Shown here: positions 15,699-34,866 of the stretch, piece by piece
Layout of the letters: every line of letters begins with the position of its first letter
How positions within the stretch are numbered: the first letter of the stretch is position 1
Origin: Methanobacteriota archaeon
GTDB lineage: Archaea > Thermoplasmatota > E2 > JACPAO01 > JAHWKR01
Direction of reading: 5' to 3'
NCBI GenBank assembly: GCA_019347805.1
Contig: JAHWKR010000003.1
Coordinates: 1 to 64,000 of the forward strand
Length of the DNA: 64,000 bases
Made by a program: the position numbers and the translations under genes
Notes under the pieces: model-generated
Told to the model about the DNA's origin: nothing
Seen by the model: only the letters and a program-made list of their open reading frames with translations
The model's database searches: none

Positions 15699-17192
15699 TT
15701 ACGGCCAGAACTTGCTCTTCTTCTCGGGGTATGCCCCCAACCCGAAGTCCTGCCACCGCGCCTTCACCTTCTCCCGTGTGCCGTCGTCCATGGCGATGAC
15801 ATCGGGCCATGGGCGTGGATGCCCTTCCTCGGGCCATTTGGTGGTGGCGTCGATGCCGATCTTCCCGCCGACGCGGTGCAACGGAGAGGCGTGTTCCAGG
15901 TCGTCGACGGGGAAGCCGTCCAAGAGGACGACGTCGCGGGCGGGGTCGTAGCAGTGCGAGGCCACCCACATGACCATCGACGGGTCGTGCACGTCGACCC
16001 AGTCGTCGACGACGACGATCATCTTGGTGAACATCATCTGGCCGGTGCCCCAGATGCTCTGCATGATCTTCTTCGCCTGCCCGGGGTAGCGTTTCTTGAT
16101 GCTGATGATCATGAGGTTGTGGAAGCCGCCCTCGATGGGCATGTTCATGTCCACGACCTCGGGTTGGGTGAACTTGAGAAGCGGCAGGAAGAGGCGTTCG
16201 ATGGATTTGCCCCACCAGGCGTCCTCTTGCGGCGGGACGCCCACGATCGTGGTGGGATAGATCGGGTCGTTCCGCATCGTCACGGCGGAGCAGTGGAAGA
16301 CGGGATATTCGTCGGCCAATGAATAGTATCCCGTGTGGTCGCCGAACGGACCCTCGGTGCGCAGCTCGCCGGGGATGACGTGGCCTTCAAGCACGATCTC
16401 GGCGTCGGCGGGGACCTCGAGCGGCACCGTCTTGCATTTGACGAGCGGCAACCGTTTCTTCCTCAGGAAGCCGGCGAAGATGTATTCGTCCAATCCCTCC
16501 GGCAGGGGGCATCCGGCCGCGAACATCGTGGCGGGGTCGCCGCCGAACGCCACCGCGACCGGCAAGGGCTTCACGTCTTTGCCGGCCTGGGCGGCCTCCC
16601 AAAGATGCTTGGCGCCGCCCTTGTGGAGGTGCCAGTGCATGCCGGTGGTTTTCTTGTCGTAGACCTGCATGCGGTAGAGTCCCACGTTGCGGTCGCCGCT
16701 TTTCGGGTCTCGGGTGACCACTTGCGGGAGCGTGATGAAGCGTCCGGCGTCCTGCGGCCAGCACTTCAACACCGGGAGTCGGGTGAGGTCGACGTCGTCG
16801 CCTTCCAGGACCACTTCCTGGCACGATGCCTTGCGCACCGTCTTGGGGGGGAACGACAGCACCTCCTTGACGACGGCGAGTTTCCCGACCGCCTCCTTGA
16901 AAGACTTGGGCGGCTTGGTCTTGACGAGCGAGACGAGATGCTCGCCGATGCCCTCGATGTCCTCCGTCCCCAAAGCCAGCTGCATGCGCTTCGGCGAACC
17001 GAACGTGTTGATGAGGACGGGGATCTCCGAGCCCCTGACGTTCTCGAAAAGCAGCGCCGGCCCGCGCGCCTTGGTCACGCGGTCGGTGATCTCGGCGATC
17101 TCCAACACCGGGTCGACCTCCGCCTGGACGCGGACGAGCTCACCGTTCTCTTCGAGGACGCGGATGAAATCCCGGAGGTCCGAATAGGCCAT
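15699..17192 (-). CDS. ubiD: UbiD-family decarboxylase (prFMN-dependent; MqnM/UbiD-like)
   Basis: 497 aa, ATG at 17192: MAYSDLRDFIRVLEENGELVRV...GPALLFENVRGS...NVGLYRMQV...GGKIGIDAT. Full-length UbiD architecture. Confidence 0.9.
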   Translation of the reverse strand: MAYSDLRDFIRVLEENGELVRVQAEVDPVLEIAEITDRVTKARGPALLFENVRGSEIPVLINTFGSPKRMQLALGTEDIEGIGEHLVSLVKTKPPKSFKEAVGKLAVVKEVLSFPPKTVRKASCQEVVLEGDDVDLTRLPVLKCWPQDAGRFITLPQVVTRDPKSGDRNVGLYRMQVYDKKTTGMHWHLHKGGAKHLWEAAQAGKDVKPLPVAVAFGGDPATMFAAGCPLPEGLDEYIFAGFLRKKRLPLVKCKTVPLEVPADAEIVLEGHVIPGELRTEGPFGDHTGYYSLADEYPVFHCSAVTMRNDPIYPTTIVGVPPQEDAWWGKSIERLFLPLLKFTQPEVVDMNMPIEGGFHNLMIISIKKRYPGQAKKIMQSIWGTGQMMFTKMIVVVDDWVDVHDPSMVMWVASHCYDPARDVVLLDGFPVDDLEHASPLHRVGGKIGIDATTKWPEEGHPRPWPDVIAMDDGTREKVKARWQDFGLGAYPEKKSKFWP

Positions 17193-20988: not shown

Positions 20989-21778
20989 GAACCGCCATCG
21001 ACCACAGGTGCGTACCGGCGACCAACTCACCGACCGCGACCTCCAACATCGACCTGCTCAAGCCATCAGGGGGCCCGCCAGGGCACAAAGGCTTAAGAAA
21101 AAGGCACGGCCATTTCGATACGATGACCGCGGACAGGATTCCGACCGAGCGTCGTAAGGTCCGCCTTACACTTCAAGAGGAGAAGGCCATCAGGCGCTGG
21201 GGCTCGATAATCGTCTCCACGCGCGACTGATCACCGAGTTGCCGCTCGACGCATTCCCGCGTCATCTTTATGTGCTGGTCCTTCACCTGTTGCCGACCGT
21301 AGCCGAACTCGCTCTGCCGGTCGATCAATCGATGCGACGCATCGGAGAAGTTGTCCACCGCGACCCGGAAATCGATCCTCGGCGTCCGGTTCGTCGCCAT
21401 ACCAGGGGAAGGCGATTCCCAGCGCGGTAAGGATCCCTTCGAGAAAGAGCATCGAGGTGCGGTGGTTCCCGTTTCCGAGGCACTGTGCCCAGACCAGAGA
21501 ATGAAGGACCTCCGCGACCAGGTCGGCGCCCCGAGCATCTGAGGCCAGCACTCCGCGGAACACCGCCGCCAGACGGTCCGGCTCCGTCGGCTTGTATTCC
21601 TCAAGGGCGACCCCCCGGTCGGTCAGATGGATCTGTCGCCGAATAGTACTCCAAGAACCGATCAACGGCTCGTTCGGCGGCGTCAGCCACGGCACATGCC
21701 ACTCCCGCAGCCCAGAAAACCCTTACCTCACCGCCCTAGGCGCATCTGACAGCCTTACCTAGTATGTATCGACCAGCG
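20989..21778. mobile_element. ~790-bp putative insertion/remnant element flanked by 39-bp direct repeats
   Basis: Bounded by the two repeat copies. Local GC is roughly 58%, against ~68% for the genome. It sits exactly between the convergent oxidase and ABC-2 permease stops and carries a Doc/Fic-like ORF on the minus strand. No integrase is present. Confidence 0.35.
21231..21695 (-). CDS. Fic/Doc-family-like protein with degenerate active-site motif
   Basis: ...LHSLVWAQCLGNGNHRTSMLFLEGILTALGI... aligns to the Doc core HxFxDxNKRTAxxxxxxFLxxNG. The catalytic His is replaced by Gln and the Asp by Gly/Asn. The gene lies entirely inside the insertion; an overlapping alternative frame is 21173..21604. 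Confidence 0.35.
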   Translation of the reverse strand: MPWLTPPNEPLIGSWSTIRRQIHLTDRGVALEEYKPTEPDRLAAVFRGVLASDARGADLVAEVLHSLVWAQCLGNGNHRTSMLFLEGILTALGIAFPWYGDEPDAEDRFPGRGGQLLRCVASIDRPAERVRLRSATGEGPAHKDDAGMRRAATR

Positions 21779-21817
21779 CTTGTCCCGAGCGAGGCGAGGT
21801 TCGTGCACCTTTCGTAG
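21779..21817. repeat. direct repeat copy 2
   Basis: cttgtcccgagcgaggcgaggttcgtgcacctttcgtag; ends 1 nt before the ABC-2 permease stop codon (tca at 21819-21821). Confidence 0.8.
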
Positions 21818-21818
21818 G

Positions 21819-22901
21819 TCACGACTCTCCGGCCGCCATCCATCTGCCGGCCCGCCTCAGCGCCGACCTAAGGAGCCCCCAGCCGACGAGCGACGCGACG
21901 AGGCTGCCAAGGACGACAAGGTGGACCCCTCGGTGCACGGAGTCGGCGGCGAGGAGCGTCACGGCGTTCACTGGTGAGACCGGCAAGAGCATCGCCAGGC
22001 CGAGGACGAGGAAGAAGGCGAGCGCGAAGAGCACCTGCGCCCGGTCGCGGTCGCGGACGGCGAGGGCGATGGCCGCCGCGAGAATACCGCCGATCCACGC
22101 GAGCGCGGTGGCGAGGACGGTGATGAAGAAGAGGCCGCTCCATGGGATGGAGAAGCCGTTCAGGGCCAGGAGCCCGAACCAGGCGACGACGAGGAGCGGC
22201 GTGATGGCGGTGTTGGCAAGGATCTTCCCTTCCACCACCTGCGTCGCGTTCGCCGGCGTCACCAAAAGCAGCGGCAGTGTCCCCCGTTGCACCTCCTCGG
22301 TCAACGAGTCGGCGCTGAGGCCGCCGGAGATGATGACCGGCAGGAAGACGAGGAGTGGGATGAGGAGGGCGTAGACGAACGAGAACTGGCCGGCGGCGAT
22401 GTCGCCCTCGACGTAGAGCGGTTCCTGGACGAGACGTCCGTCGCGCTCTTCGCGCAGCTCCTTCTCGTACACTTCAAGCGCGTTCTTGACCTGGGTGAGC
22501 GTCAGGGTGGCGAGCATGTCCGATTCGGGCAGCACCAGTTCGACGTCGAACGTGCCGTTCTCGTCCAGTGGCCCGCGTACGAGCATCAAGGCGTCGGCCG
22601 CCCCTTGGGTGAAGGCGGCGCGGGCGTTCTCGTCGCTGTCGTAGTAACGCACGTCGAGGCCTTCGGCGGCGAGCACCTCGGCCGCGCGGCTCGTACCGTT
22701 CGTCGCCACCACCGGCTCGGTGTAATCGGGGATGGCGGACGGGTCCACCAGCGCAGAGAGGCCGACGACAAGGAAGCTGGAGAAGGCGGCGACGAAGACC
22801 TGGATGACGATGGCGAGGAGGATGGTGCGTTCGCGGAAGATGCCGACGAACTCCTTCTTGGCGATGGCCCCTAGTGCGCTAAAGGAGACCACCTCCTCCA
22901 A
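21819..22901 (-). CDS. ABC-2 type transporter permease
   Basis: N-terminal cytoplasmic helix, a large extracytoplasmic loop, then 5 C-terminal TM helices; last gene of a three-gene minus-strand operon. Confidence 0.65.
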   Translation of the reverse strand: MEEVVSFSALGAIAKKEFVGIFRERTILLAIVIQVFVAAFSSFLVVGLSALVDPSAIPDYTEPVVATNGTSRAAEVLAAEGLDVRYYDSDENARAAFTQGAADALMLVRGPLDENGTFDVELVLPESDMLATLTLTQVKNALEVYEKELREERDGRLVQEPLYVEGDIAAGQFSFVYALLIPLLVFLPVIISGGLSADSLTEEVQRGTLPLLLVTPANATQVVEGKILANTAITPLLVVAWFGLLALNGFSIPWSGLFFITVLATALAWIGGILAAAIALAVRDRDRAQVLFALAFFLVLGLAMLLPVSPVNAVTLLAADSVHRGVHLVVLGSLVASLVGWGLLRSALRRAGRWMAAGES

Positions 22902-24738
22902 GGACCTTCAGGATGGCGAGGTTGTAGGCGGCGTGCAGGAGCACCGCGGAGGTGAAGGCGACGACGAAGTCGGCGCGGCCGCGGCGGGCACCCCAGGCCG
23001 AGATGCAGGCGGTCACGACATGCAGCAGCAGTGGGAAGAGGAGCAGCACACCGACGACGAGCCAGGGGATCCCCGCGTCCAAGGCCCCGGCGCCGGCGCT
23101 CCCGAAGACGGCGGCCCCGGCGGGCACCTGGAACAGCCCGGTGAGCGAGGCGAAAAGGAACGCCTTCTCGGCGACGAAGAACCCGACCCCGACGAGGGCG
23201 CCGAAGAGGAGCATCCGCTTCATCGGCACACGGCCGCGCTGCGCGGCGGCGTAGCTGGGGGCGCCCTTGAACAACTCCTCGACGAACGCGATGGCGACGA
23301 GCGTACCCAGGACGCCGGTCTGGACCGGCCAGGCGAAGAGGAACGCGACCAGGAAGAGCTCGGCGACGAGGACGAACGGGATGAACAGCGCCGCCAGCCA
23401 GAATCCGCTGCCGAGGCCGTGCACCTGGCGCGCCACGGCGTCGACCGCCTTCGACAGGACCGGCTTCTGGTGGAAGAGGTCCTCTTCGCGGAAGAGCGCC
23501 ACGCCGAGAAGGAAGAGCACCATGGCGACGAGTGTGAGTGGCACAGTGGCGTAGAGCATCTCGATGAGGGAGATCTCGGAGCCGCGCAGGTCGAGGACGA
23601 TGAGCGAGATGGGGGAGACCAGGGCGACCGGATGGACCTCGGTGAAGGCCGCCGGAAGGAAGGCGTACATGGTCAGCAGCACGCTCGCGAAGACGGTGAG
23701 GAAGGTGAGTTCGCGGAACGAGCGCGCGAACATGGCGGCGATGAACTCCAAAGCCAGGAAGACCAGGACGAGCGGGACGACGGCGACGAGCGACACCCAG
23801 CCGGCGCCGATCCAGAGCGCGATGGCCGCCGAGATGCCGAGCATCAGGACGAGGTAAGGCAGGGTCTTGCCGATGAGGATCTCCATCGGTGTGACCGGGG
23901 AGGCGAGGAGCGCTTCGCCTTGGCGGCCGAGGCGTTCGCGCAATATGGCGCCGGCGTAGACCTGGACGATGAAGTTCATCGGCAGGAGGAACGCGTAGGC
24001 GAGAAGCAGCGAACGGAACGGGAACGGCGGTTGCAGCGTCCCCGGTGTGTTCGGTTCGTCCCCTTGCGGCATGTAGGAGAAACCGCCGTCGATGTCCCCG
24101 GATGGTGGCGGAGCCGACGCGTCGCCGCTTGGCGTATCCGTGCCATCGCCCCCTTCGCCTTCCAGCCGGGACTCTTCCTCGTCGGCGGTCTCCCCTGCAC
24201 GTGGGTCGATCGGCTCGGGAAGGGCACCCGATGTCCCCCCACCGAACGCACCGGGTGCCTGCTCTTCGTAGCTGAGGGTGATGCGCACGGGGAACGCCGC
24301 CGTCTGGTCGGGCTCGGAGCGCATGATGAGGTGCGTGTGCGCCTTGACGGCGTCGTCGAGGGCGACGAGCGACGCCTTTCCCTTGTCGGTCGGTTTGGCG
24401 AACGCGTTCATGCGGTCGACACCGAGGTCGGCCTCGTCCGCATCCACGAAGGGAGCAGGGTCATCGACGATGAAGACACGGAAGACGGGGTCGGCCTCGA
24501 GCGCAGGCCGGAGCGGTGAGTCGGCGGTGACGGCGGCGCGGTAGATGTCGTGGTCGAAGTCGAATCCCGCGCCGAGGACGAACGGCGACAAGAGGGCGCC
24601 GAGGACGCCGAAGAGAAGAAGCCCGAGGAGGGTCTTGCGGTCGAGCTGTTTGCGCGTGCGGCCGAGCTCCCCTTTGGCGATGGTGGCGACGCGTCGGAGA
24701 CGCGCGGCGCTTCGCATGGGTCCGGCGGCGCGGGGCAA
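22879..24738 (-). CDS. ABC-2 family permease fused to a C-terminal CPBP (CAAX protease/bacteriocin-processing)-like intramembrane domain
   Basis: 619 aa with more than 10 TM helices. The C-terminal region carries CPBP-like motifs FVEELFKG (EExxxR-like), LLLHVVTAC (FxxxH-like) and LLHAAYNLAI (HxxxN). An acidic Gly/Asp-rich loop lies in the middle. Confidence 0.55.
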   Translation of the reverse strand: MPRAAGPMRSAARLRRVATIAKGELGRTRKQLDRKTLLGLLLFGVLGALLSPFVLGAGFDFDHDIYRAAVTADSPLRPALEADPVFRVFIVDDPAPFVDADEADLGVDRMNAFAKPTDKGKASLVALDDAVKAHTHLIMRSEPDQTAAFPVRITLSYEEQAPGAFGGGTSGALPEPIDPRAGETADEEESRLEGEGGDGTDTPSGDASAPPPSGDIDGGFSYMPQGDEPNTPGTLQPPFPFRSLLLAYAFLLPMNFIVQVYAGAILRERLGRQGEALLASPVTPMEILIGKTLPYLVLMLGISAAIALWIGAGWVSLVAVVPLVLVFLALEFIAAMFARSFRELTFLTVFASVLLTMYAFLPAAFTEVHPVALVSPISLIVLDLRGSEISLIEMLYATVPLTLVAMVLFLLGVALFREEDLFHQKPVLSKAVDAVARQVHGLGSGFWLAALFIPFVLVAELFLVAFLFAWPVQTGVLGTLVAIAFVEELFKGAPSYAAAQRGRVPMKRMLLFGALVGVGFFVAEKAFLFASLTGLFQVPAGAAVFGSAGAGALDAGIPWLVVGVLLLFPLLLHVVTACISAWGARRGRADFVVAFTSAVLLHAAYNLAILKVLGGGGLL

Positions 24739-24749
24739 GCCATGTCCTC

Positions 24750-25667
24750 CTAGTTGGCGGCGTGGCGCAGGAAGATCTCTTCCAGCGAGACCTCTTCCTC
24801 GCGGACGTCGATGATGCGGCCCCCTTTGTCCTTGACCTGTTCTTCGATGCCATGCACCTCGGCGAAATCGGTCACCGTCATCGCGAAACCGCGCGCGGTC
24901 TCCTCGGCGCCCATGAACGGCACGTCGGTGGTCACGGTGTAGCGGGTGCTGCGGGTCGAGGCACGGATCTCGGCCATCGTCCCTTGGGCGATGACACTGC
25001 CTTGCCGGACGATGAGGACGCGGTCGCAGATGCGTTCGACGTGGTAGAGGTTGTGCGCGCTGAAGACGACGGTCTTGCCGCGTCGGCTCAGCTCTTGGAC
25101 CAGGTCGAGGATGTAGGCAGAGGCGACCGGGTCGAGCCCGGAGGCGGGTTCGTCGTAGATGAGGAGGTCGGGGTCGTTGATGAGGCTGCGGGCGATGGCG
25201 ACCTTGCGCCGCATGCCCTTGGAAAGGTCGCCGATCTTCTTCTCGTCCCGGACATCGAGCTTGAGGGCGGCGAGGCTGTCGTCGATGCGGCGGTCGGCGA
25301 CGTCGCGTGGGACTTCGTAGAGTTCGGCGAAGAAGCGCAGGTACGACAACGGGGTCATGTCCTCGTAGAGGGGGGATTCCTCGGGGAGGTAGCCGATGCG
25401 CATCTTGTGCACCGGGTCCTCGACCTGGAGGCCCCCGACGGTCACCGTGCCGGTGGTCGGCGCGATGAGCCCGGCGAGGATCTTGATGGTTGTCGATTTT
25501 CCGGCGCCGTTCGGTCCGATGATGCCGAAGATCTCTCCGGGTCGGACATCGAAGGTGAGTTCCTTCATGGCCCAGTTGGCGCCATAGCGCTTGCCGAGGC
25601 CTTCGACCACCACGAACGGGTCGCCGGGCGTCGTCTGGGCATGGCTCGTCGTCGCCCTCGCCATCAT
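24750..25667 (-). CDS. ABC transporter ATP-binding protein (ABC-2 exporter ATPase)
   Basis: Internal start MMARATTS... at ATG 25667. Walker A GPNGAGKST, signature LSKGMRRKVAIA, Walker B LLIYDEPASGLD, H-loop. The upstream part of the ORF-track ORF is spurious. Confidence 0.85.
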   Translation of the reverse strand: MMARATTSHAQTTPGDPFVVVEGLGKRYGANWAMKELTFDVRPGEIFGIIGPNGAGKSTTIKILAGLIAPTTGTVTVGGLQVEDPVHKMRIGYLPEESPLYEDMTPLSYLRFFAELYEVPRDVADRRIDDSLAALKLDVRDEKKIGDLSKGMRRKVAIARSLINDPDLLIYDEPASGLDPVASAYILDLVQELSRRGKTVVFSAHNLYHVERICDRVLIVRQGSVIAQGTMAEIRASTRSTRYTVTTDVPFMGAEETARGFAMTVTDFAEVHGIEEQVKDKGGRIIDVREEEVSLEEIFLRHAAN

Positions 25668-25851
25668 GGCGCGACTTGCCGGGAGGAGGCTAATAAAGCA
25701 GCGGGGAGGGGTGGAGGTCCGGGGACGGCAGGGGTCCGCCGTGACGGAAGAAGGCCCGTGGGTCCGTTGTGGCCAAGGCCCTAAGAACGTGCGGCGGCCA
25801 GACACGGCCCGGACCGAACGCTTTAGGCCACGGCCCGGTTCACCGCATCCC

Positions 25852-26880
25852 ATGCCCATGGCCACCGCGACCGAGCACGACGACCCTGCTCCCGACGTGC
25901 ACCGGATCCCGGTCGACATCCCGTTCCCGCTCCCGCCGGCGAACGCCACTTACCTGAAGGGGGCGGTGCCGACCCTTGTCGATACCGGCGCGAAGACCGA
26001 CACGAGCTGGGAATCGTTCGAGCGACAGGCGCGGCGTCGCGGGATCGAGGTCGCGCGCATCGAGCAGGTGCTCGTCACGCATGTCCACCTCGACCATGCC
26101 GGCAACGCGGCGCGCATCCATGAGGCGTCGGGGGCCGAGGTGATGGTGCACGAGGCCGAGGCGGACATCCTGGAGAACTGGTCCTCGCTCACCGAAGGAC
26201 GCAACCGTTCGTATGAGGAGGGATTGCGGCGGGCGGGGCTCCCGGAGCGTCTGCGGCTCGCGCTTTCGCAGCGGGGTACCGATGTCGATGTCATGCTCGA
26301 TGATTGTCCGGTGGCGCGGCGGCTCAAGGACGGCGACAAGATCGAGGCGGGCGACCGCACGCTCACGGTCCTCCACACGCCGGGCCACACGCCGGGGTCG
26401 GTCATCTATTGGGACGAGGAGGATCAGGACCTCTCGCTCGCCATGACCGGCGACACGATCCTGGAGCGTATCACTCCGAACGCGTTGCAGGTGCGGCGCG
26501 AGGAGGACGGGGCGCTCGCCACCTATCTCAAGACGCTCGAGCGCCTGAAGAGCATGCCCATCGGGACGATGATCCCGGGCCATGGCCTGCCGGTGACAGG
26601 ACTCGACGGCATCATCGAGCGGGCGCTCAGGCTCTACGAGGAGCGCAGGGGACGCCTCGTCGGTTTCCTGAAGGACGCGGACGGACCGGTGACGGTGTGG
26701 CGGCTTGTCACCCGGGAATGGCCGGATGTGGATGCGGGCAAGGCGTTCCTCGCCACTTCGGAGGTGCTCGGTCATGTCGGCATCCTCGCCAAGGAGGGTG
26801 TCATTGAGATCACAGAGCCCGAGGAACGGGAAGACGACGAAGAGGCGGCGCTTCTTCGCCTGGCCGCGCCTGAGGCGTGA
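25852..26880 (+). CDS. MBL-fold metallo-hydrolase
   Basis: Start ATG at 25852 (MPMATATEHDD). Metal-binding motif THVHLDHAGN, later HTPGHTPG and PGHG. Confidence 0.7.
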   Translation: MPMATATEHDDPAPDVHRIPVDIPFPLPPANATYLKGAVPTLVDTGAKTDTSWESFERQARRRGIEVARIEQVLVTHVHLDHAGNAARIHEASGAEVMVHEAEADILENWSSLTEGRNRSYEEGLRRAGLPERLRLALSQRGTDVDVMLDDCPVARRLKDGDKIEAGDRTLTVLHTPGHTPGSVIYWDEEDQDLSLAMTGDTILERITPNALQVRREEDGALATYLKTLERLKSMPIGTMIPGHGLPVTGLDGIIERALRLYEERRGRLVGFLKDADGPVTVWRLVTREWPDVDAGKAFLATSEVLGHVGILAKEGVIEITEPEEREDDEEAALLRLAAPEA

Positions 26881-26895
26881 CGACGGCCTGACCGA

Positions 26896-26965
26896 CCGCT
26901 CGGACGCTCACTTCGCCGACAACTGCACGACCGCTCGGACGCTCACTTCGCCGACAACTGCACGA
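26896..26965. repeat. perfect 35-bp tandem duplication (x2) spanning the encapsulin stop codon
   Basis: ccgctcggacgctcacttcgccgacaactgcacga at 26896-26930 and 26931-26965. The second copy encodes the encapsulin C-terminus ...VQLSAK plus stop on the minus strand; the first copy repeats this in the 62-bp convergent intergenic space. Confidence 0.85.
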
Positions 26966-27749
26966 CCGCGTCCGGCTCGAGTACGCGGAACGTGAACGAC
27001 TCGGTGATGTAGAACTCCACTTGGTCCTTGTCGTGGTAGGCGTAGCCGACCGACAGGTCCTGTCCGACGGTGAGGATGAAGTCGCCGCCGCGTTGCGACA
27101 AGAGCAGACCGCCTTCCAGTCCGGGCGCCATGACGATGGGCCCATCGACGATCTGTCGTTCGATGTGCTTGCGGATGGGATATCCGCCTTCCCCGGCGAC
27201 GCGTGCCAGTTGGTTGTATTCCTTGACGCCGAGGGCGAGGGCGTAGGGTCCGGCGACGCCCGCTTCGCGCAGCTTGCCGGCCGCCTCCGCGATGGAGTCC
27301 GGATAGCCGGTGCCGTCCTTGGGCAGGCGGACCGGTTTGTGGCTGGAGGAATCGACGAGGCCTTTGATGCCCGCCTCGGGGTGTCCGTTGAAGATGGCGG
27401 AATCCTCGGCGAGGGCGATGCGTTTGGCCGCCTCGGCGACCGGTTCGAGGTGCGCCTCGGCGCCACGGGCGATGTAGTCGAGCTCGAGCATCGGCATGAC
27501 GATGGGGGTGCGGAACTCGACGAGGGGCTGCACCTGCCGGAGGCCGCCCTTGACGCCCTTGACGCGGTCCTTGTCGAAGAGCGCGAGCCGCCCGGTGTTG
27601 TAGGCGCTGTATTTCCAGCCGTGGGGTCCGTCGAAGTCGACGAGCTTGCGCGCGGCCAGGTAGACCTGGAACACGCTCTTCGCTTCCTGGTCGATCTGTT
27701 CCCACGCGTCTGGCGTGACAGGTGCGATGTTGCGTTTGAGGAGGTCCAT
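26943..27749 (-). CDS. encapsulin nanocompartment shell protein (family 1, HK97-fold)
   Basis: Start ATG at 27749: MDLLKRNIAPVTPDAWEQIDQEAKSVFQVYLAARKLVDFDGPHGWKYSAYNTGRL..., 268 aa, canonical encapsulin N-terminus and length. The 40-codon ORF-track extension overlaps the cargo gene. Confidence 0.85.
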   Translation of the reverse strand: MDLLKRNIAPVTPDAWEQIDQEAKSVFQVYLAARKLVDFDGPHGWKYSAYNTGRLALFDKDRVKGVKGGLRQVQPLVEFRTPIVMPMLELDYIARGAEAHLEPVAEAAKRIALAEDSAIFNGHPEAGIKGLVDSSSHKPVRLPKDGTGYPDSIAEAAGKLREAGVAGPYALALGVKEYNQLARVAGEGGYPIRKHIERQIVDGPIVMAPGLEGGLLLSQRGGDFILTVGQDLSVGYAYHDKDQVEFYITESFTFRVLEPDAVVQLSAK

Positions 27750-27753
27750 ATGA

Positions 27754-28248
27754 TCAGGTCCTGAGGCTGCGGATGCGGAGGGAGTGGTCTTCTTCGGTGT
27801 GCTTGTCGGACGCGGAGGCGTCCCGTTCGGCCCGGGCACCGGGCGCCTTGGCGGTATCTTCCGCGGCACCGTCTTCGCCGGTCGCCCCTTTCGCCTCTTC
27901 TTCGGCCCGCAGTATGGGCACGTCGGTGAAAAGGTAGGTGCGCATCTCGTGGTCGAACTCGGGACTTCTGCGGCGGATCCATTCCAAGGTCATCATGGCG
28001 TGCTCGATCTCCTCGTCCTTGTTGTGGCGGAGGATCTCGCGCAGCTCGTCGTCCGTGCAGCCGTCCATGCGTTGTTGGTACCAGTCGATGGCCTCGAGCT
28101 CCTCCATGAGGGAGACGATGGCGCGGTGCATCTCGCGCGTTTCGGCGGAGAGGACCTCGTAGGGTTCGTGGTACGTTTCGCTACCGATGGGGTCCACCCC
28201 GTGTCGTTCCCTGTCCGCGCATGTGCAGCGGGTGGCGACGACGGGCAT
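27754..28248 (-). CDS. encapsulated ferritin-like protein (EncFtn/Flp cargo) with C-terminal encapsulin-targeting peptide
   Basis: Ferritin-like di-iron motifs ETREMHRA and EEIEHAMMTLEW. The C-terminal tail ...HSLRIRSLRT matches the LxIxSLK/R cargo-loading peptide. The stop lies 4 nt before the encapsulin start. Confidence 0.75.
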   Translation of the reverse strand: MPVVATRCTCADRERHGVDPIGSETYHEPYEVLSAETREMHRAIVSLMEELEAIDWYQQRMDGCTDDELREILRHNKDEEIEHAMMTLEWIRRRSPEFDHEMRTYLFTDVPILRAEEEAKGATGEDGAAEDTAKAPGARAERDASASDKHTEEDHSLRIRSLRT

Positions 28249-28350
28249 CTACTTGACCGCTTTGAGGGGGGAAAAGGAAAGGGGATTGACATGGATTGGA
28301 GTGCCAAAGCGACGCAAACCCTAATTTAGGGCGCCCTTTGAGGGGCCTCT

Positions 28351-29916
28351 ATGCGCGCCCCGACCCTTGCGGTCCTCCTCGTCTCGGTCCTGTTCGCCGG
28401 TTGCGTCTCGGACGCCCCGGCCAAGGTCGATGGCGATGCCACCGCATTCCTGCCGGACTGGTCGGAACGCGCCCTGCCGTTCGGAGACGACCACGACCAC
28501 ACCGACCCGTTGCAGCATGCGAACCTGTCGACGCGCAACTTCGAGGTCATCGGCCGCGACCCGCTCGCGAGCCCGCATTATGACGGCAAGAGCGCCGGGG
28601 GGTACCTGTGCGGGGACGGCGGCGAGACGATCGACGGCCGTCGCCTCGCCATCGTCGAGAGCCGCTCGGAGGTCGGCTTCGCGGTCGCGGACGTCACCGA
28701 TGCCACGGCACCGAAATGGCTCGGCGAGTTGGTGATGAAGTCGACCTATGTCTATGATGTCGGCGTCGTGCCCGATGGCCGTCATGTCGCGCTCGTCACC
28801 TCGAACGCCAAGACACCGTCTGCGCCGGCCACCGCATCGACCGCGGACCTGCTTCGGGAGACCCCCGAGGGCCTGGTCTACGATGGTGTCGTCTGGCAGG
28901 CGCGCTGTGCCGACGCGCCGGTCCCGCTGCGCTGGGCGGTCACCGAGGACCCGCTTCCCCGCCCGGTCAGTCTTCTCCTTGTCGACATCTCGGACCCGAC
29001 GCAGCCGACCGTCGTCGACCAACGACCGCTTCCCGGCTTCGGCCACTCGGTCGTCTCCAAGATCATGGACGGCCGTACTTTGCTCCTTGTCGGCACCGTG
29101 GCGAGCCCGAACGCACAGCAATGGCAGTTCTACGAGGTCTTGCAGACGCCGCTCGGCGGCCGGCTCCATCATGTCTCGACCTATACGGCGCCCCCGGAGC
29201 CGGACCCGCAGAGGCGGGCGTCGGCCATCGGCGGCCACACGGACGGCTGGATGCAGAAGCATCCGGCGACCGGACAGAGCTTGGCCTACCTGGTGGGCGG
29301 TCCTTGGTTCATCGTGCTCGACATCTCCGACCCGGAGACGCCGAAACGGCTCGGCATGTGGAGCGATGTGGTCGCGGGCCGCGAAGGGGCGGTCGGCAAT
29401 CTCCACTCGGCCTTCCCGCTCCGCGAGCTGGTGAACGGCCGCCACTATACGGTCATCGGTCCCGAGTTCGGTGGCCATCCGGATGGCATGCCGTCAGGCG
29501 TCGTCTGGGTGCTCGACACGACCGACCCGAACCATGTGTTCGAGGTGGCGGCGTGGACGCTTCCGCACGAGGTCGACTGGTCGGGGACCTACATGTTCTC
29601 GAACCACTATCTCACCGCGTGGAACGGGACCGTCTTCGTCAGTATGTACCATGGGGGCGTCTGGGCGCTCGACCTGTCCGTGATCACACCCGGTGCGTTC
29701 GTGCAGTTGCCCTCCGTGGGGGTCTTCATGCCGGTCGACCCGGAGCTGGAGAGCGCCATCACGTTCCGCTGGACGCCGACCTTGGAGGAGGCGTTGTCGT
29801 TCGACGACGGGACGCTTCTGACGTTCGATTCCATGACCGGACTGTGGACGTTCCGCTTCGACCCGTCCGACCCGGCACCGCCGCCCGCGCCTTGGGAAGT
29901 GCCGCCGGTCGACTGA
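28351..29916 (+). CDS. LVIVD-repeat beta-propeller lipoprotein (paralog 3)
   Basis: Lipobox LFAGC. Collinear with 11065..12660: DHDHTDPLQHANLSTRNFEVIGRDPL..., LLLVDISDPTQP, FIVLDISDPETP, VWVLDTTDPNHV, GLWTFRFDPSDPAP. Confidence 0.6.
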   Translation: MRAPTLAVLLVSVLFAGCVSDAPAKVDGDATAFLPDWSERALPFGDDHDHTDPLQHANLSTRNFEVIGRDPLASPHYDGKSAGGYLCGDGGETIDGRRLAIVESRSEVGFAVADVTDATAPKWLGELVMKSTYVYDVGVVPDGRHVALVTSNAKTPSAPATASTADLLRETPEGLVYDGVVWQARCADAPVPLRWAVTEDPLPRPVSLLLVDISDPTQPTVVDQRPLPGFGHSVVSKIMDGRTLLLVGTVASPNAQQWQFYEVLQTPLGGRLHHVSTYTAPPEPDPQRRASAIGGHTDGWMQKHPATGQSLAYLVGGPWFIVLDISDPETPKRLGMWSDVVAGREGAVGNLHSAFPLRELVNGRHYTVIGPEFGGHPDGMPSGVVWVLDTTDPNHVFEVAAWTLPHEVDWSGTYMFSNHYLTAWNGTVFVSMYHGGVWALDLSVITPGAFVQLPSVGVFMPVDPELESAITFRWTPTLEEALSFDDGTLLTFDSMTGLWTFRFDPSDPAPPPAPWEVPPVD

Positions 29917-29985
29917 GTCCGCTGGGTCGCTCGGCTGGGGCCGGCGGAAGAAGACGACGGGGGTCGGCCCGCCGGGGTCCGTCCA

Positions 29986-30771
29986 TCAGCCCCGCGTCTG
30001 GACCCCGTGCCGTTCCCCGCGCCGTTCGAGGAACGCGAGCCCGATGGCGCCGAGCGCCAGCGCCGGGCCGACCACGTAGAGTGAGAAGGTGAGGATGACG
30101 AGGACACCCGCACCGATTGCGGCGTCGGTCGCCTTCTCCTGCGCAAGACCGCCCGCGGCAGCGATGGCGATGACGCCGACAAGCGCCGAGAGGCCTCCGA
30201 AGAGCCATGCGGGCTGGATGTAGGGTTCGAACCCGACGAGGCCGAACATGATGGCGATGCCCCAGATGAGCGTCACGACACCTGCGGTCAGCATGAGGAG
30301 GCTCGAGGAAATCGGTTTGTCGGGGGCCTTTTGATGGGTGAGGGCGGCGTCCCGTGCGCGTCGCGTGCGCGGCATCATGATGAGGCCGAGGGCGACCAAT
30401 GAAAGGAGTGTGTTGGTCCCGTAGAACCCGAACGAAAGGATACCGAAGATGGCACCAAGAACTGCGAAGCCGGTGCTGCGCTGGGATACGGCCATGTAGG
30501 CGAACAGGCCCGTGAAGACCGAGAACGTAGCGACGTACCACGGCATTGTGAAAGCCAAGAACGCCGGTGCGTTCGCGCCGACACCGAGACCCGTCGTGAC
30601 CTCGAGGATCGCGGTGAGAAGACCCACCGCGGCGACCAGGTAGAGCATCATGGCGCCATAGAGCACTTTGCCCGGCCACAGGACGTTCGCGGAGCGCTCG
30701 ACCTTGCCGCTCTCGTGCTGTCCGGAGCGCGCGGCGGCGGTGCGATGTGCGAGATGCTCGGGGTCGGGCAT
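29986..30771 (-). CDS. integral membrane protein, hypothetical (6-7 TM)
   Basis: Hydrophobic helices throughout; start tentatively MPDPEHLA (ATG 30771) inside ORF 29986..30861. Confidence 0.4.
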   Translation of the reverse strand: MPDPEHLAHRTAAARSGQHESGKVERSANVLWPGKVLYGAMMLYLVAAVGLLTAILEVTTGLGVGANAPAFLAFTMPWYVATFSVFTGLFAYMAVSQRSTGFAVLGAIFGILSFGFYGTNTLLSLVALGLIMMPRTRRARDAALTHQKAPDKPISSSLLMLTAGVVTLIWGIAIMFGLVGFEPYIQPAWLFGGLSALVGVIAIAAAGGLAQEKATDAAIGAGVLVILTFSLYVVGPALALGAIGLAFLERRGERHGVQTRG

Positions 30772-30909
30772 TGGCCTTCGTCGTCTCTTGCCTTTCCGAG
30801 GACCAAGTAGGTTGCGGCCGCGCGCGGGTGGAGGCGTGGACATGGCATCGTACGTGGTCATGTCGCCCCGGTCCCGAACGTCTTATAGCGAATTCGCGGT
30901 CGCCGCCCT

Positions 30910-31332
30910 GTGCCCCCCGACCGCAGCGAGGCGGCCCCCCCGGAGGACGAGGCGGATCTCCGTGCGTCGGAGCGTCCATGGCCGGACCATGTCGCGCTCA
31001 AGTCGTGTCCGCATTGCGGTGCCGAGATCGGCGAGGGGCACTATGTCTGCTGGAACTGCTCGAACGATGTCCGTGCGCCGCCCGAGTCTGAGATGTACGC
31101 CGAGCTCGAGACGATGCTCGCCCGTCGGGAACTCGACCTGAAGGAGCGCGACCGGCGCTTCTGGGGCTGGGTCTTCGTCGGGCTCGTCATCGCCGGGGTC
31201 GGCTCGTTGTGGCTCTGGACCCGTTGGTGGGGGATGGCGGTGCTGTTCTTCGTGGCCGCTTTCTTCGTCGGCCGCGCGTGGTACCGGTCGCACCAGAGCG
31301 CCCGGCGGATCCGGAGCGCCCACGACGTCTGA
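30910..31332 (+). CDS. zinc-ribbon plus 2-TM small membrane protein
   Basis: CPHCGAEIGEGHYVCWNCSN (CxxC...CxxC) followed by two TM helices. Confidence 0.4.
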   Translation: MPPDRSEAAPPEDEADLRASERPWPDHVALKSCPHCGAEIGEGHYVCWNCSNDVRAPPESEMYAELETMLARRELDLKERDRRFWGWVFVGLVIAGVGSLWLWTRWWGMAVLFFVAAFFVGRAWYRSHQSARRIRSAHDV

Positions 31333-31403
31333 GGGATGGCAGACAGTGGCGAAGGGCGACGCCCCGCAGGGCCCGCTCGCCCGGGTCCACGACCACGACG
31401 GAA

Positions 31404-32063
31404 TCAGGTGTCAATGTGCCCGCGATGCCAGGCGAGGACCGTGTCGGCGATGTCGCGGTGGTCGTCGATGCGCTCGAAGACGAGATCGGCGGCGTCACGC
31501 ACGGCAGGCCCGGTCGGTTCCACGGCGACGCCGAGGCCGATGTTCTTCCAGACACCGGTGTCGTTCACGTCGTTCCCGATATGGGCGACCCGCCGGGGGT
31601 CGACGTCCTCGCGTTGCAGGAAGGCGTGCAGGTTGCGCCACTTGTCGAAGAGGGGGCGCACTTCCCCGGTCACCACGCCATCGCGGACGACGCCGTGGGA
31701 GGCGATCTGGTCCTCGATGCCGAAGGCGTCGGCGAGGTGCGCGGTGATGAAGTCGGGGTTGTCTGTCAGGACGGCGACGCGCAGTCCGGCCTCCTTGAGC
31801 ATCGAGACGGCGGGTCCGATACCAGGGAACCAGGTGCCCTGCCGGAGCGCCTCGCGCACCTCGCCGACGGTGCGGCCGGCGAGGAAGGCGAACTCGATCT
31901 CGAAGCATTCCTCGAGGGTGATCTCGCCGCTGCGGAAGCGCTTGTCGTGGTGGAGCACCTCTTCCTCGAAGCCGAAATGGCGCGCCACGAGGAGGAACGC
32001 GGTGCCGTCGATGAGCGTTCCGTCGAGGTCGTAGCAGACGAGGTCGAGTCGGCCGTCGGCCAT
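31404..32063 (-). CDS. HAD-superfamily hydrolase (phosphoserine-phosphatase-like subfamily IB)
   Basis: Motif I DLDGTL; motif III/IV ...HIGNDVNDTG. Confidence 0.65.
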   Translation of the reverse strand: MADGRLDLVCYDLDGTLIDGTAFLLVARHFGFEEEVLHHDKRFRSGEITLEECFEIEFAFLAGRTVGEVREALRQGTWFPGIGPAVSMLKEAGLRVAVLTDNPDFITAHLADAFGIEDQIASHGVVRDGVVTGEVRPLFDKWRNLHAFLQREDVDPRRVAHIGNDVNDTGVWKNIGLGVAVEPTGPAVRDAADLVFERIDDHRDIADTVLAWHRGHIDT

Positions 32064-32214
32064 CGGGCCGCCGATGGGGCGGACCATCAGGTGCCTTTCG
32101 GTCCTGTCGTTCGGGTCTCATGTCGCCGTTCCGGGTTCTTCCGGTGCCGATGTCACATACCTGGCGTCGTCCCGACCGGAAGGCATAACGCTTCCGCCGC
32201 GGAATCCTGGTGTC

Positions 32215-32910
32215 ATGGGTCCCGACCGCGGCGTCGAGCCGCTTCCCGTGGTGCTCGTCCACGGCGTTCTCGGTCAGGAGCTCCTCTACTGGAACCTGGT
32301 CCGCGCCCGGCTGGAGACGGAGGGTTTCCAGGTCCTCGAGGCACCGCTTCCCCGCCTGGCCCTGGGTCGGTTGACCGATGCGGGCGTGGCGTTCGGCGAC
32401 ATCATCGACGCGCTCCTGGACGACGTCGGGGCGGAGCAGGTCGACGTCGTCGCCCATAGCGCGGGAGGCCTTGCGGTCCGCCATGCCCTCATGCAGGACG
32501 GGCACCGCGACCGGGTGCGACGGCTCATGACGCTCGGTTCGCCGCACGGCGGCACGCGGCTCGCCCATCTCGTGCCCGGCTTCGGCATCGCCGCGGACGT
32601 GCGGCCGGGCAGTCCGTTCCTGGCGCATTTCCTCGACGACCCGACCCCGGGGCCGACCTGCTACTCGGCGTTCTGGACCCGCTTCGACGGCATCGTCATC
32701 CCGAGCGAACTGGCGCGCCTGCCGTCGGCGCCGAACGTCGAGAACGTCCGGCTCGACCGGGTCAGTCATTGGGGGTATCTCTACAAGCCACGGGTGGCAC
32801 GGGTCTTGGCCGACGAGCTCCGACGCGGCTTCGTGGGCGGGGAGCGGGAGATCGTGAACGGCCTTTTCACACCGCGCTCCGGGACGGGCGCGGACGCGGT
32901 ACCGGCCTGA
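32215..32910 (+). CDS. alpha/beta-hydrolase, lipase/esterase-like
   Basis: VVLVHGVLG, nucleophile elbow AHSAGG, LGSPHGG; resembles small bacterial lipases. Start ATG at 32215. Confidence 0.55.
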   Translation: MGPDRGVEPLPVVLVHGVLGQELLYWNLVRARLETEGFQVLEAPLPRLALGRLTDAGVAFGDIIDALLDDVGAEQVDVVAHSAGGLAVRHALMQDGHRDRVRRLMTLGSPHGGTRLAHLVPGFGIAADVRPGSPFLAHFLDDPTPGPTCYSAFWTRFDGIVIPSELARLPSAPNVENVRLDRVSHWGYLYKPRVARVLADELRRGFVGGEREIVNGLFTPRSGTGADAVPA

Positions 32911-32985
32911 GAATGGCCTTGCAGCCGTCCGGTTGCCCACGTGGAACACCTATCTACGAGACTACCGTGCGCCGTCGTGACGCAC

Positions 32986-34866
32986 ATGGGTGCGGTCGGA
33001 GGTACTTGTTTGCGACGGATAGCGGTCATCTTACTGTCAGGCCTGTTGGCGATCACATTCTTCCCGACCCAGGGTTCCGCCCATGAGGGCGCCTTCCCGG
33101 TCGTCCTCCTTCATGGTTGGACGGGCGATGGCGACTCGTTCCGTGAGATGGTGCCGAAACTGGAGGCGCAGGGGCTCGCCGTCCTCGATTTCGACCCGGC
33201 GACCGCCGGGACCCAGGCGCTCAGCTACGGACCGATGGCGGCAGGTCAGCATGTCTCCTACATCGCGGGAAAGGTCGTGGAGGAGGCGATCCTGGACGCG
33301 CTCGCGGCGGCCGGTTATCCGGCGGACCAGAAGGTCGACGTCATCGCGCACAGCATGGGCGGTCTCGTGGCGCGGTTCCTCATCGAGCAGCCGGGTGCCG
33401 ACGTCGACCATTGGTCCGCCTCGAGCGGCTGGTACGGGGACGGGACCCCGGATGTCCGCTCCGATTGGGCGGCGCGCGTGGACGACCTCATCATGACCGG
33501 GACGCCGAACCATGGCACCTGGGAAGCGTGGGTGCCGAGCACGATCGGCGGCTTCGGTGACTGGAACGCGGCAGGTTCCGACATGGTGCCGGGGAGCACG
33601 TTCCTCGAGCGCATGGGCTACGCGGCGCCCTCCGGCGAGCACTATCATGCCATCGGCGGGGACCCGGCCTACCTGAACTTCCTCAAGTGGGACTACGACG
33701 GCGACGGGTTCTCCCGCGGGTTCGATGGTGTCGTCCCGGCCGAATCACCCTACGTCACGGGTGCGACGATCGACTACGTGGACGGCCATCATGGCGCGCT
33801 GCTTTCGGACGACGACGCGCTCGACCTCATCATCGAGTTCCTCGGACAGACGAGCGTCGTCGACGGGATCGGTGGCGCGTCCCTTGCCGGGGACGCCGTC
33901 GTCCGGCTCGAGTACCTCGATGTCGTGCAGGACCACGACGGCGGTTCGTCCGACGAGATGGTCGTGGACGTCTATGTCGATGCGGACGGATCCTTGGGAC
34001 CCGCTGGTTACACGAACGCGGGCCGGCACACGTTCTCCAAGGACGGTCCGTTCACGGTCGACTGGGGGGACACCGGTCCCACCTTCGCATCGGTCAAGGT
34101 CCCCGGTACGTCGCCCCTTCTGGATGTCAAGGTCGTGGTCCTGGAGGACGACACCTCGTGGGGTGGCGGCTACGAGGCCGTCTCGACGCACTACGTCACG
34201 AACATCCTCCTGTCGGAGGACATCGACGGCATGGATTTCTATGCCAAGGGGGCGACCGACTCGAAAGGCGGCACGAACACGGTGCGCGTCAGCGTCAACG
34301 GCGTGACAAGCGACGTCGGCGAGACGCGCGCGGTCGAACTCGGCCTCGAGAGATCCTACGTGAAGGACGACCACGACTGGGGCAAGGGCGAGGTGACCTA
34401 CTACCTGAACGCGGGCCGCGTCGGCTACACCTCGCAATACAGCCGGGGTGAGATCGGGGGCACCCACTATTCGCGTGACTCAGGGAGCTGGGTCGACATC
34501 GGGTCGCACAGCAAGAACGACGGCACCGTCGAGGCGGAGCTGGTGTGGTCGGGACGCATGCTGGAGGACGCGACGCTGCGCTTCGACGTGACCTATTGGG
34601 AGGACGATGGTGGTTGGAGCGGTGCGGACGGCGGCAACATGTACTACCTGGAAAAGTCGCTCGCACAGTTGTCTGACGGCACGTCGCGCTACAAGGGCAC
34701 GAGCCTGTCGGATTACGACGTCTACATCTCCGTCGTGAAGTACGGTCCCGGGGAATCGCCTGCGCTCCAGATGGTGGAGGAGATGGACGCTGTGGAGAAC
34801 CCTGTCGGTCTCCTGCCCGACGGTCCGGATGACCCACCGTTCGGACCGATGGACCCGCCGCTCTGA
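32986..34866 (+). CDS. secreted alpha/beta-hydrolase (lipase-like) with large C-terminal beta-rich domain
   Basis: Signal peptide, VVLLHGWTGDG, nucleophile elbow AHSMGG, then a ~400-aa Asp/Gly/Thr-rich C-terminal region. Confidence 0.55.
   Translation: MGAVGGTCLRRIAVILLSGLLAITFFPTQGSAHEGAFPVVLLHGWTGDGDSFREMVPKLEAQGLAVLDFDPATAGTQALSYGPMAAGQHVSYIAGKVVEEAILDALAAAGYPADQKVDVIAHSMGGLVARFLIEQPGADVDHWSASSGWYGDGTPDVRSDWAARVDDLIMTGTPNHGTWEAWVPSTIGGFGDWNAAGSDMVPGSTFLERMGYAAPSGEHYHAIGGDPAYLNFLKWDYDGDGFSRGFDGVVPAESPYVTGATIDYVDGHHGALLSDDDALDLIIEFLGQTSVVDGIGGASLAGDAVVRLEYLDVVQDHDGGSSDEMVVDVYVDADGSLGPAGYTNAGRHTFSKDGPFTVDWGDTGPTFASVKVPGTSPLLDVKVVVLEDDTSWGGGYEAVSTHYVTNILLSEDIDGMDFYAKGATDSKGGTNTVRVSVNGVTSDVGETRAVELGLERSYVKDDHDWGKGEVTYYLNAGRVGYTSQYSRGEIGGTHYSRDSGSWVDIGSHSKNDGTVEAELVWSGRMLEDATLRFDVTYWEDDGGWSGADGGNMYYLEKSLAQLSDGTSRYKGTSLSDYDVYISVVKYGPGESPALQMVEEMDAVENPVGLLPDGPDDPPFGPMDPPL

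Follow-up and report, generated by a model that had tools for sequence, protein, structure and literature searches.

The window, by which we mean the whole stretch of 64,000 nucleotides that was analysed, carries on its minus strand an operon of two genes, in which a gene for an EncFtn cargo protein is followed by the gene for a family 1 encapsulin shell (Table 1). As had been described before, only 4 nt (27750-27753) separate the stop codon of the EncFtn gene from the ATG of the shell gene at 27749. The shell gene converges with a metallo-beta-lactamase-fold gene on the plus strand, whose call was confirmed by an exact-product look-up (340 aa, Logan assembly). A perfect tandem repeat covers the 3' end of the shell gene and leaves the coding sequence of the metallo-beta-lactamase-fold gene intact.

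Table 1. Features at the encapsulin locus, in window coordinates
Feature	Position	Strand	Remarks
Metallo-beta-lactamase-fold gene, convergent	25858-26880	+	PF00753, E = 4e-23; 340 aa
Spacer between the convergent stops (metallo-beta-lactamase-fold gene / shell gene)	26881-26942		62 nt
Perfect tandem repeat, period 35	26893-26969		Tandem Repeats Finder; 2.2 copies, 77 nt
Family 1 encapsulin shell gene	26943-27749	-	268 aa; C-terminus ...FRVLEPDAVVQLSAK, then stop
EncFtn cargo gene	27754-28248	-	164 aa as called
Codons for the putative cargo-loading peptide HSLRIRSLRT	27757-27786	-	Translation
Divergent intergenic region	28249-28350		Candidate promoters for EncFtn and the gene at 28351

The identities given to the two genes in a preliminary description of this DNA, an EncFtn cargo and a family 1 encapsulin shell, are borne out by curated cut-offs of Pfam and NCBIfam and by relatives in the PDB. 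The shell protein covers the full profile PF04454 (positions 1-253 of 253) with an E-value of 1.3e-87 and 293.7 bits (cut-off 24.3) and scores 297 bits against the equivalog model NF041155 encap_f1 (cut-off 100). By sequence comparison it matches 33 PDB sequences at E <= 1e-10, including solved HK97-fold icosahedral shells. EncFtn reaches an E-value of 2.1e-41 and 140 bits with PF22277 (cut-off 27) and 138.6 bits with TIGR04535 (cut-off 125). Among PDB sequences, the best solved match of both proteins is the Enc:EncFtn pair of Haliangium ochraceum, with E-values of 1.5e-88 over the full length for the shell (7odw) and 2.4e-43 for EncFtn (7oe2). The EncFtn chain consists of a conserved domain (residues 26-109), a low-complexity linker of about 45 residues and a C-terminal peptide. 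Its residues E50 and Y57 align with Glu31 and Tyr38 of the H. ochraceum protein (10.1101/431494) and E80-I-E-H83, within EEIEH, aligns with EEVEH of the latter; the residues of the ferroxidase centre are kept. ExxH motifs had been proposed in the plural; the motif is indeed present, but only once per chain (E80-I-E-H83), in addition to E50 and Y57.

Like the H. ochraceum Enc:EncFtn system (PDB 7odw, 7oe2, 7oeu; Ross et al. 2022, PMC8791618), the operon encodes its cargo separately, in a gene that immediately precedes that of the shell. Residues of the ferroxidase centre are common to both systems, as are a long flexible linker and a C-terminal peptide of the form S-L-x-I-x-S-L-R. In most of 80 related loci, too, a cargo gene directly precedes that of the shell. 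The two systems differ in their hosts, an archaeon versus a myxobacterium, in the peptide (HSLRIRSLR versus GSLGIGSLR) and in an N-terminal extension of 21 residues in the EncFtn open reading frame as called here. The EncFtn/Flp systems of Rhodospirillum rubrum and Thermotoga maritima (PDB 5da5, 3dkt) are members of these two families as well (E = 5.8e-33 and E = 1.2e-54) and follow the same operon logic, but they are more distant in sequence than that of H. ochraceum and come from bacterial hosts. The Flp-fusion encapsulins of Pyrococcus furiosus and Sulfolobus are likewise archaeal family 1 systems with a ferritin-like cargo. In these, the shell protein carries the Flp domain as an N-terminal fusion (Andreas & Giessen 2021, PMC8346489), whereas the cargo in the window is encoded by a separate gene and carries a C-terminal peptide, as in bacteria. 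Judged by its sequence, this is a family 1 encapsulin system of a standard, known kind, one more non-fused pair in archaea.

The C-terminus of EncFtn reads ...EEDHSLRIRSLRT. Its last residues, HSLRIRSLRT, had been said to match the cargo-loading peptide, and this holds for the C-terminal position and for the S-L-x-I-x-S-L-R register but not for the two glycines of the core, both of which are replaced. The published core of the loading peptide is GxLGIxxL and the solved loading peptide of H. ochraceum is GSLGIGSLR (PMC8791618), with which HSLRIRSLR shares 6 of 9 residues. In the corresponding H-S-L-R-I-R-S-L of the window the Leu, Ile and Leu are kept, while the glycines are exchanged for His and Arg. 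Among 80 bacterial relatives, the register xLx[IVL]xxLx occurs near the C-terminus of the upstream cargo in 79, the core L-G-[IVL]-G is kept in 76, and 43 have the peptide SLGIGSLK. The relatives from the same archaeal clade also deviate, with NSLRIHSLRG and GSLRIGRLR. Not keeping both glycines is therefore, as far as these sequences tell, a trait of the putative loading peptide of this clade. The Thermoplasmatota-like clade might conceivably have evolved an arginine-rich, glycine-free putative loading peptide (SLRIxSLR) together with an altered shell pocket.

An archaeal host is supported by two observations. The shell product is identical to an NCBI protein labelled 'Euryarchaeota archaeon', and the named homologues of the ThiI encoded in the window come from Thermoplasmatota, Thermoplasmata, Methanobrevibacter and a haloarchaeon, with one bacterial match near the bottom of the list. 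The shells of four clade relatives are 79%, 66%, 63% and 59% identical to that of the window, and the best matches in bacterial genomes (GTDB species representatives) reach at most 60%. The divergent intergenic region offers each of its two flanking genes a candidate archaeal TATA box that would give rise to leaderless transcripts: a T-rich element about 24-33 nt 5' of the EncFtn start codon and, for the divergent gene, the element TAATTTA, which precedes the ATG at 28351 by about 26 nt. No sigma-70-like bacterial promoter was found in this region (28249-28350) or across 26500-28500.

The repeat over the end of the shell gene is real, and the phase in which it had been reported (26896-26930 and 26931-26965) is one valid reading of the array. 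Tandem Repeats Finder aligns positions 26893-26969 with 100% matches and no indels, at a score of 154 that is by far the highest in the window. Two units (26893-26927 and 26928-26962) are followed by a closing 7-nt CGACCGC at 26963-26969, so that this motif starts at 26893, 26928 and 26963. Read on the minus strand, the array consists of GCGGTCGTGCAGTTGTCGGCGAAGTGAGCGTCCGA twice and then GCGGTCG. The perfect 35-nt tandem thus stands, but its total length is 77 nt instead of 70 because the microhomology CGACCGC closes the array. The final 27 nt of the shell gene, stop codon included, lie within it, together with 3' flanking sequence. As had been noticed, the stop and the C-terminal codons occur twice, and each copy encodes AVVQLSAK followed by TGA. 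The real stop of the shell gene lies at 26943-26945 and the copied one at 26908-26910. The ribosome meets the copy with the original codons and stop first, so that the extra one lies downstream of the first stop and the shell protein is unchanged; an alignment with 25 homologues showed a normal C-terminus. A use of the second copy by read-through or frameshifting was considered and rejected on the sequence: translation continuing in frame past the TGA misses the second AVVQLSAK, since a 35-nt period, not being divisible by 3, puts the second copy in another frame.

Within the 64-kb window, the 35-nt unit has two matches with up to 3 mismatches, both at the array itself, compared with none in 100 shuffles. 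The array is also the only perfect tandem duplication with a period of 15-100 in the window, and none arose in 50 shuffles. The 27-nt end of the shell gene had no match in JGI metagenome contigs. A duplication over the shell stop was found in 0 of 82 related loci, comprising the 4 clade relatives and 78 of the 80 bacterial relatives; the other two gave no minus-frame match in the scan and were left out of this comparison. From these sequences, the duplication appears to be private to the lineage and the ancestral state to have been single-copy, with the nearest relative being only 79% identical. One bacterial relative (L039) contains an unrelated repeat with a 13-nt period about 100 nt downstream.

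Microhomology-mediated tandem duplication by slipped-strand mispairing is a textbook mutational process. The array shares with such duplications the head-to-tail order, the perfect identity, the composition of n units plus a closing short repeat and the restriction to one lineage, and we see no difference from them; only its location over a stop codon catches the eye. Replication slippage, which was among the mechanisms proposed earlier, fits the anatomy of unit, unit and CGACCGC arranged head to tail with a spacer of 0 nt, and we infer it as the mechanism. In the ancestor, CGACCGC would have occurred as a 7-nt direct repeat on both sides of the shell stop, with 35 nt from start to start; taken loosely, its two copies measure 12 nt (CTGACCGACCGC and CTGCACGACCGC). 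A misalignment between the 7-nt repeats during replication or repair would then have copied the 35-nt unit once. Without the extra unit, the convergent spacer measures 27 nt, and its lengthening to 62 nt would be the sole effect of the event. The perfect identity of the copies suggests that the event is recent, and the duplication is most likely neutral because the protein is unchanged and only the spacer between convergent genes has become longer. The location at a 3' end would need no special mechanism, as duplications that include the stop spare the gene. Overall, we consider it very probable that the locus is an ordinary encapsulin system that has undergone a recent, most likely neutral duplication of 35 nt by slippage.

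Whether the repeat is present in the reads was addressed by proxy with an independent assembly, the Logan contigs of run SRR15827330 (k=31). Two of these contigs match the window with 100% identity, one across 6357 nt and the other across the 6810 nt fetched, and stop at window positions 26922 and 26940. In a simulation of the k=31 de Bruijn graph the duplicated sequence gave unitig ends at exactly 26922 and 26940, whereas the single-copy sequence produced no branching node or break. It follows from the two contig breaks that k-mers of the unit-to-unit junction, in which ...GCCGACAACTGCA is joined directly to CGACCGCTCGGACG..., exist in the reads. The duplication therefore passes this proxy of the read-level check that had been called for, and an assembly artefact is exceedingly unlikely. 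For some or all of the population, the k=31 graph demonstrates two or more units, while the exact copy number lies beyond it; an assembler whose largest k is below about 78 would report 77 nt for a longer array too. The population may be a mixture of one-copy and two-copy genomes. A short perfect tandem duplication in a metagenome-assembled genome can hence be checked without reads via the sites at which an independent k=31 assembly breaks.

These breaks weigh against the explanation that the genome is single-copy and that the repeat was made by assembly or scaffolding, for example by joining contigs over an untrimmed k-mer overlap. Such an error would be conceivable in a metagenome-assembled genome, and the total length of 77 nt coincides with a k-mer size in common use. 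However, the independent assembly demands junction k-mers in the reads and an untrimmed overlap join leaves the additional 7-nt microhomology structure unexplained, which makes an artefact exceedingly unlikely. It is also very unlikely that the repeat is a functional 3' element, a spacer or binding site of variable copy number that tunes termination, mRNA stability or the interference between convergent transcripts. The spacer has more than doubled, which would suit such a role, and the copy number could exceed the assembled one. Yet the fold of the repeat RNA is ordinary, with a minimum free energy of -47.3 kcal/mol where shuffles average -48.8 (z=0.42), the stretch 26500-28500 yielded no terminator-like site, and the whole window contains neither a match to an Rfam family nor a tRNA gene that could serve as an att target. 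Furthermore, the unit occurs nowhere else in the window, relatives have nothing comparable over the stop codon, and the perfect identity of the copies makes a very young event more plausible than a feature that has been maintained.

The preliminary description had linked the repeat with a second one at the end of an oxidase gene in the same window and had suggested a recurring mechanism or att sites at gene ends. The duplication could accordingly be the trace of a mobile element, either an att pair or a long target-site duplication left after excision, and would then be akin to what happened at the oxidase gene. Each repeat extends over the final codons and the stop of a gene in a tight convergent pair, the partner of the oxidase gene being an ABC-2 gene. 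The lengths of 35 and 38 nt are similar, and lower-GC DNA has clearly been inserted at the oxidase site. There, an imperfect repeat (34/38 identical) with copies 829 nt apart flanks a 791-bp insert that has a GC content of 0.617 versus about 0.68 in the flanks and holds its own frameshifted Fic/Doc-like gene. With Pfam, this gene gave only a sub-threshold Fic/DOC match (E=0.056), and its homologues had no Pfam match in the local library. The two loci differ in architecture, since repeats flank inserted DNA at the oxidase locus only, whereas 0 nt lie between the encapsulin copies, and the 64 kb contain no other duplication of this kind. Between the 35-nt unit and the oxidase repeat of 38 nt, the best common stretch is 11/13 in the same orientation; it was equalled in 36 of 500 shuffles and is not significant, and a common motif was rejected. 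Neither the recurring mechanism at 3' ends nor the att sites are upheld by these comparisons. Site-specific excision, moreover, leaves one att site and not two, no terminal inverted repeats border the oxidase insert, and its 791 bp are too small for a recombinase beside the one frameshifted gene. To our knowledge, the target duplications of known transposons are far shorter than 35-38 nt. The 7-nt microhomology, on the other hand, fits slippage exactly, and we regard an origin from a mobile element as most improbable. We give equally little credit to the notion that the encapsulin repeat is an empty footprint whose insert has been lost and the oxidase repeat an occupied site, two states of one process that duplicates about 35-38 bp at the last codons of genes. 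If this were true, there would have to be an archaeal element of an unknown type whose staggered, Cas1-like target duplications are unusually long.

The duplication is without consequence for the encoded protein, and the significance of the locus beyond annotation is small. What the operon may do follows from knowledge of the family: the EncFtn and shell genes would be co-transcribed, and EncFtn would presumably form decamers with ferroxidase activity, which the C-terminal ...SLRIRSLRT would anchor within the shell. The product would be an iron-mineralising nanocompartment that protects a Thermoplasmatota-like archaeon from oxidative stress. The departure of the clade's peptide from the bacterial SLGIGSLK consensus may be of interest for the engineering of cargo loading, and the locus adds a pair of EncFtn and encapsulin from an under-sampled archaeal lineage.

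Both proteins of the minus-strand operon score above curated cut-offs, and its description as an EncFtn cargo gene followed by a family 1 encapsulin shell gene is correct. The EncFtn ORF matches NCBIfam TIGR04535 ('encapsulin-associated ferritin-like protein') with 138.6 bits (cut-off 125) and the shell ORF matches NF041155 ('family 1 encapsulin nanocompartment shell protein') with 297 bits (cut-off 100). The EncFtn stop codon (27754-27756) and the shell ATG (27749) are separated by 4 nt. For both proteins the best solved relatives belong to the Enc:EncFtn complex of Haliangium ochraceum (shell with 7odw, E=1.5e-88; EncFtn with 7oe2, E=2.4e-43). The di-iron site of the EncFtn family is formed between two chains, and the protein carries a single ExxH per chain instead of the several indicated in the preliminary description. 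The ferroxidase-centre residues themselves are kept, since E50 and Y57 align with Glu31 and Tyr38 of H. ochraceum (10.1101/431494) and E80-I-E-H83 aligns with its EEVEH motif. The shell protein already has a public annotation that uses the old 'bacteriocin' name: the identical protein is entered at NCBI, on a 106.8-kb contig, as 'MAG: bacteriocin family protein [Euryarchaeota archaeon]'.

Genes of the encapsulin and oxidase loci, and the nearest relatives of the operon (positions of relatives refer to their own loci)
Feature	Position	Strand	Description
EncFtn ORF	27754-28248	minus	164 aa; Pfam EncFtn-like PF22277, E=2.1e-41
Shell ORF	26943-27749	minus	268 aa; Linocin_M18 PF04454, whole profile, E=1.3e-87
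Galactose/glyoxal-oxidase-like gene	19276-20988		Kelch and GO-like E-set domains
Insert gene in oxidase locus	21173-21695	minus	Rare family; split by frameshift in the window
L004	1-45		Shell 79% identical; cargo C-terminal peptide NSLRIHSLRG
L005	2-265		Shell 66% identical; cargo C-terminal peptide GSLRIGRLR
L086	919-1296		Shell 63% identical; cargo C-terminal peptide GSLSVRKPGVSLSTS
L087	3-257		Shell 59% identical; cargo C-terminal peptide GSLLVRRPGR

The shell gene ends in a tandem array that on the plus strand (26880-26975) reads ...cctgac CGACCGC-tcggacgctcacttcgccgacaactgca CGACCGC-tcggacgctcacttcgccgacaactgca CGACCGC gtccgg... and encodes AVVQLSAK-TGA twice on the minus strand. Tandem Repeats Finder places it at 26893-26969 (period 35, 2.2 copies, 100% matches, no indels) with a score of 154, compared with 53 for the second-highest array of the 64-kb window. 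Because the 7-nt CGACCGC that opens each unit also closes the array, its true extent is 77 nt, and the 35-bp units delimited earlier are one valid phase of it. It is the sole perfect tandem duplication with a period of 15-100 in the window (none in 50 shuffles), and the 35-nt unit is confined to this one site even when up to 3 mismatches are tolerated (no matches in 100 shuffles).

The repeat could be tested against the Logan collection, which includes run SRR15827330 assembled independently at k=31; there, contig _6218 equals window 20566-26922 and the fetched part of contig _60049 equals 26940-33749, both at 100% identity and gap-free. De Bruijn graphs (k=31) were simulated for this region both as duplicated and after deletion of one unit. 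The duplicated sequence gives branching nodes at 26893-26923 and 26939-26969, so that unitigs must stop at 26922 and restart at 26940, whereas the sequence lacking one unit gives zero branching nodes. The Logan contig ends agree to the base with the duplicated model; the reads must therefore contain the k-mers of the unit-to-unit junction, so the repeat is real and was not created by the MAG assembler in joining contigs. The k=31 graph gives no copy number, and more than two units or a mixed population fit equally well. At its other end contig _6218 starts inside the oxidase gene, which implies a further graph branch at 20566, for example a repeat or a strain variant.

The duplicated segment starts within the shell gene and ends beyond its stop codon. 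Ribosomes reach the original copy first, so the shell protein is unchanged, and its C-terminus ...FRVLEPDAVVQLSAK is normal for the family in an alignment with 25 homologues. As 35 is not divisible by 3, read-through of the stop would not enter the second copy in frame. The spacer to the convergent stop of the metallo-beta-lactamase-fold gene (26878-26880) measures 62 nt, as against 27 nt without the duplication. In the repeat region no terminator-like site and no Rfam match were found, and the RNA fold is not unusual (z=0.42). The metallo-beta-lactamase-fold gene itself contains a perfect 12-nt tandem repeat (26373-26396; CCACACGCCGGG twice) encoding HTPGHTPG, which may perhaps be just the usual HxPGHTxG motif region of the family and not a recent duplication.

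Among the mechanisms considered in the preliminary description, replication slippage fits best: misalignment of short direct repeats would classically yield unit, unit and microhomology, as seen in the array, and the loose 12-nt similarity of its flanks (CTGACCGACCGC and CTGCACGACCGC) is consistent with such misalignment. A mechanism recurring at gene ends had been proposed on the basis of the oxidase gene, whose last 38 nt (20952-20989) are repeated 829 nt downstream at 21781-21818 (34/38 identical). The second copy ends in an in-frame VPSEARFVHLS-stop and adjoins, at 21819, the stop of an ABC-2 permease gene that runs convergently; the two copies are separated by 791 bp with a GC content of 0.617, compared with about 0.68 in the flanks. 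Repeat and insert are reproduced by the independent Logan contig spanning 20566-26922. The insert gene has an N-terminal part in ORF 21231-21695 and a C-terminal part (...LIDRQSEFGYG...PQRLMAFSS) in the overlapping ORF 21173-21604. A set of 5.8 billion proteins contains only 4 homologues, each about 173-178 aa long, and the family shows an invariant, Fic/Doc-reminiscent WxQCLGNGNHRT motif (Pfam Fic sub-threshold, E=0.056). The site has the look of an old insertion at the 3' end of the oxidase gene, and the case is one of an insertion that regenerated the end of its target gene, not of tandem slippage. The 35-nt unit and the 38-nt oxidase repeat share an 11/13 stretch that was equalled by 36 of 500 shuffles, and the 64-kb window holds no third 3'-end duplication. 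A recurring mechanism is thus unsupported. Both events affect 3' ends in closely spaced convergent gene pairs. Survivorship is the simplest explanation, since a gene tolerates a duplication or insertion that leaves its stop codon intact.

No duplication across the shell stop codon was found in the 4 clade relatives and 78 bacterial relatives scanned (2 of 80 bacterial loci, without a usable match, were left out); the bacterial locus L039 has an unrelated repeat of 13-nt period about 100 nt downstream. The perfect identity of the copies and their restriction to this lineage point to a very recent event. We infer that the duplication, an incidental one, is probably neutral.

The window's ThiI has named homologues in Thermoplasmatota, Thermoplasmata, Methanobrevibacter and a haloarchaeon, with one bacterial match near the bottom of the list; its nearest matches are 53-59% identical. 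Other genes include a bacterial-type PEP carboxylase (54074-56722), an RNase R-like protein (42868-45708) and a plus-strand 1259-aa ORF (57728-61507) with at least 5 internal repeats about 645 nt (215 aa) apart and conserved DPxGDP...W.W.DG segments; the product of this ORF is probably a large protein of repeated domains that is secreted or lies at the surface. A UbiA-like prenyltransferase (8509-9369, minus; TIGR01475, with MqnP models well below cut-offs) and a TIGR03701 menaquinone-biosynthesis decarboxylase (15699-17192, minus; 625 bits, cut-off 496) suggest that this archaeon makes menaquinone by the futalosine route. As a class, Flp cargos had already been reported from two archaeal phyla, and a transfer of family 1 systems from bacteria to archaea has been proposed (PMC8346489). 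The gene order HAD-hydrolase, EncFtn, shell is common to the relative L086 and the window neighbourhood, which suggests that the operon belongs to the resident genes of the lineage. In L086 (164-2084) the HAD-family hydrolase gene lies immediately upstream of the EncFtn and shell genes; in the window its homologue (31404-32087, minus) is set apart from EncFtn by 3 extra genes, one of which (28351-29916) codes for a protein of 521 aa that matches the LVIVD repeat weakly.

The loading peptide was compared with 80 loci that encode shell relatives, drawn from GTDB species representatives; every one is bacterial, and none exceeds 60% identity. Immediately upstream of the shell gene, 79 of them encode a peptide in the xLx[IVL]xxLx register (SLGIGSLK in 43, SLGIGSLR in 6), and the L-G-[IVL]-G core is retained in 76 of the 80. 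In H. ochraceum the solved peptide reads GSLGIGSLR, and the published core is GxLGIxxL (PMC8791618). As described before, HSLRIRSLRT (codons 27757-27786, minus strand) forms the very C-terminus of EncFtn, behind a linker of about 45 residues, and keeps the S-L-x-I-x-S-L-R register; both core glycines are replaced, however, which on a strict reading places it outside GxLGIxxL. The loading-peptide claim of the preliminary description is right in part. Across the archaeal-like clade, comprising the window and its four nearest relatives (all short Logan contigs), cargo C-termini lack the glycines that mark the consensus SLGIGSLK in bacteria. Because these relatives deviate in the same direction, the window's peptide is plausibly functional and clade-specific, and the peptides of this clade may have co-evolved with the binding pocket of the shell.
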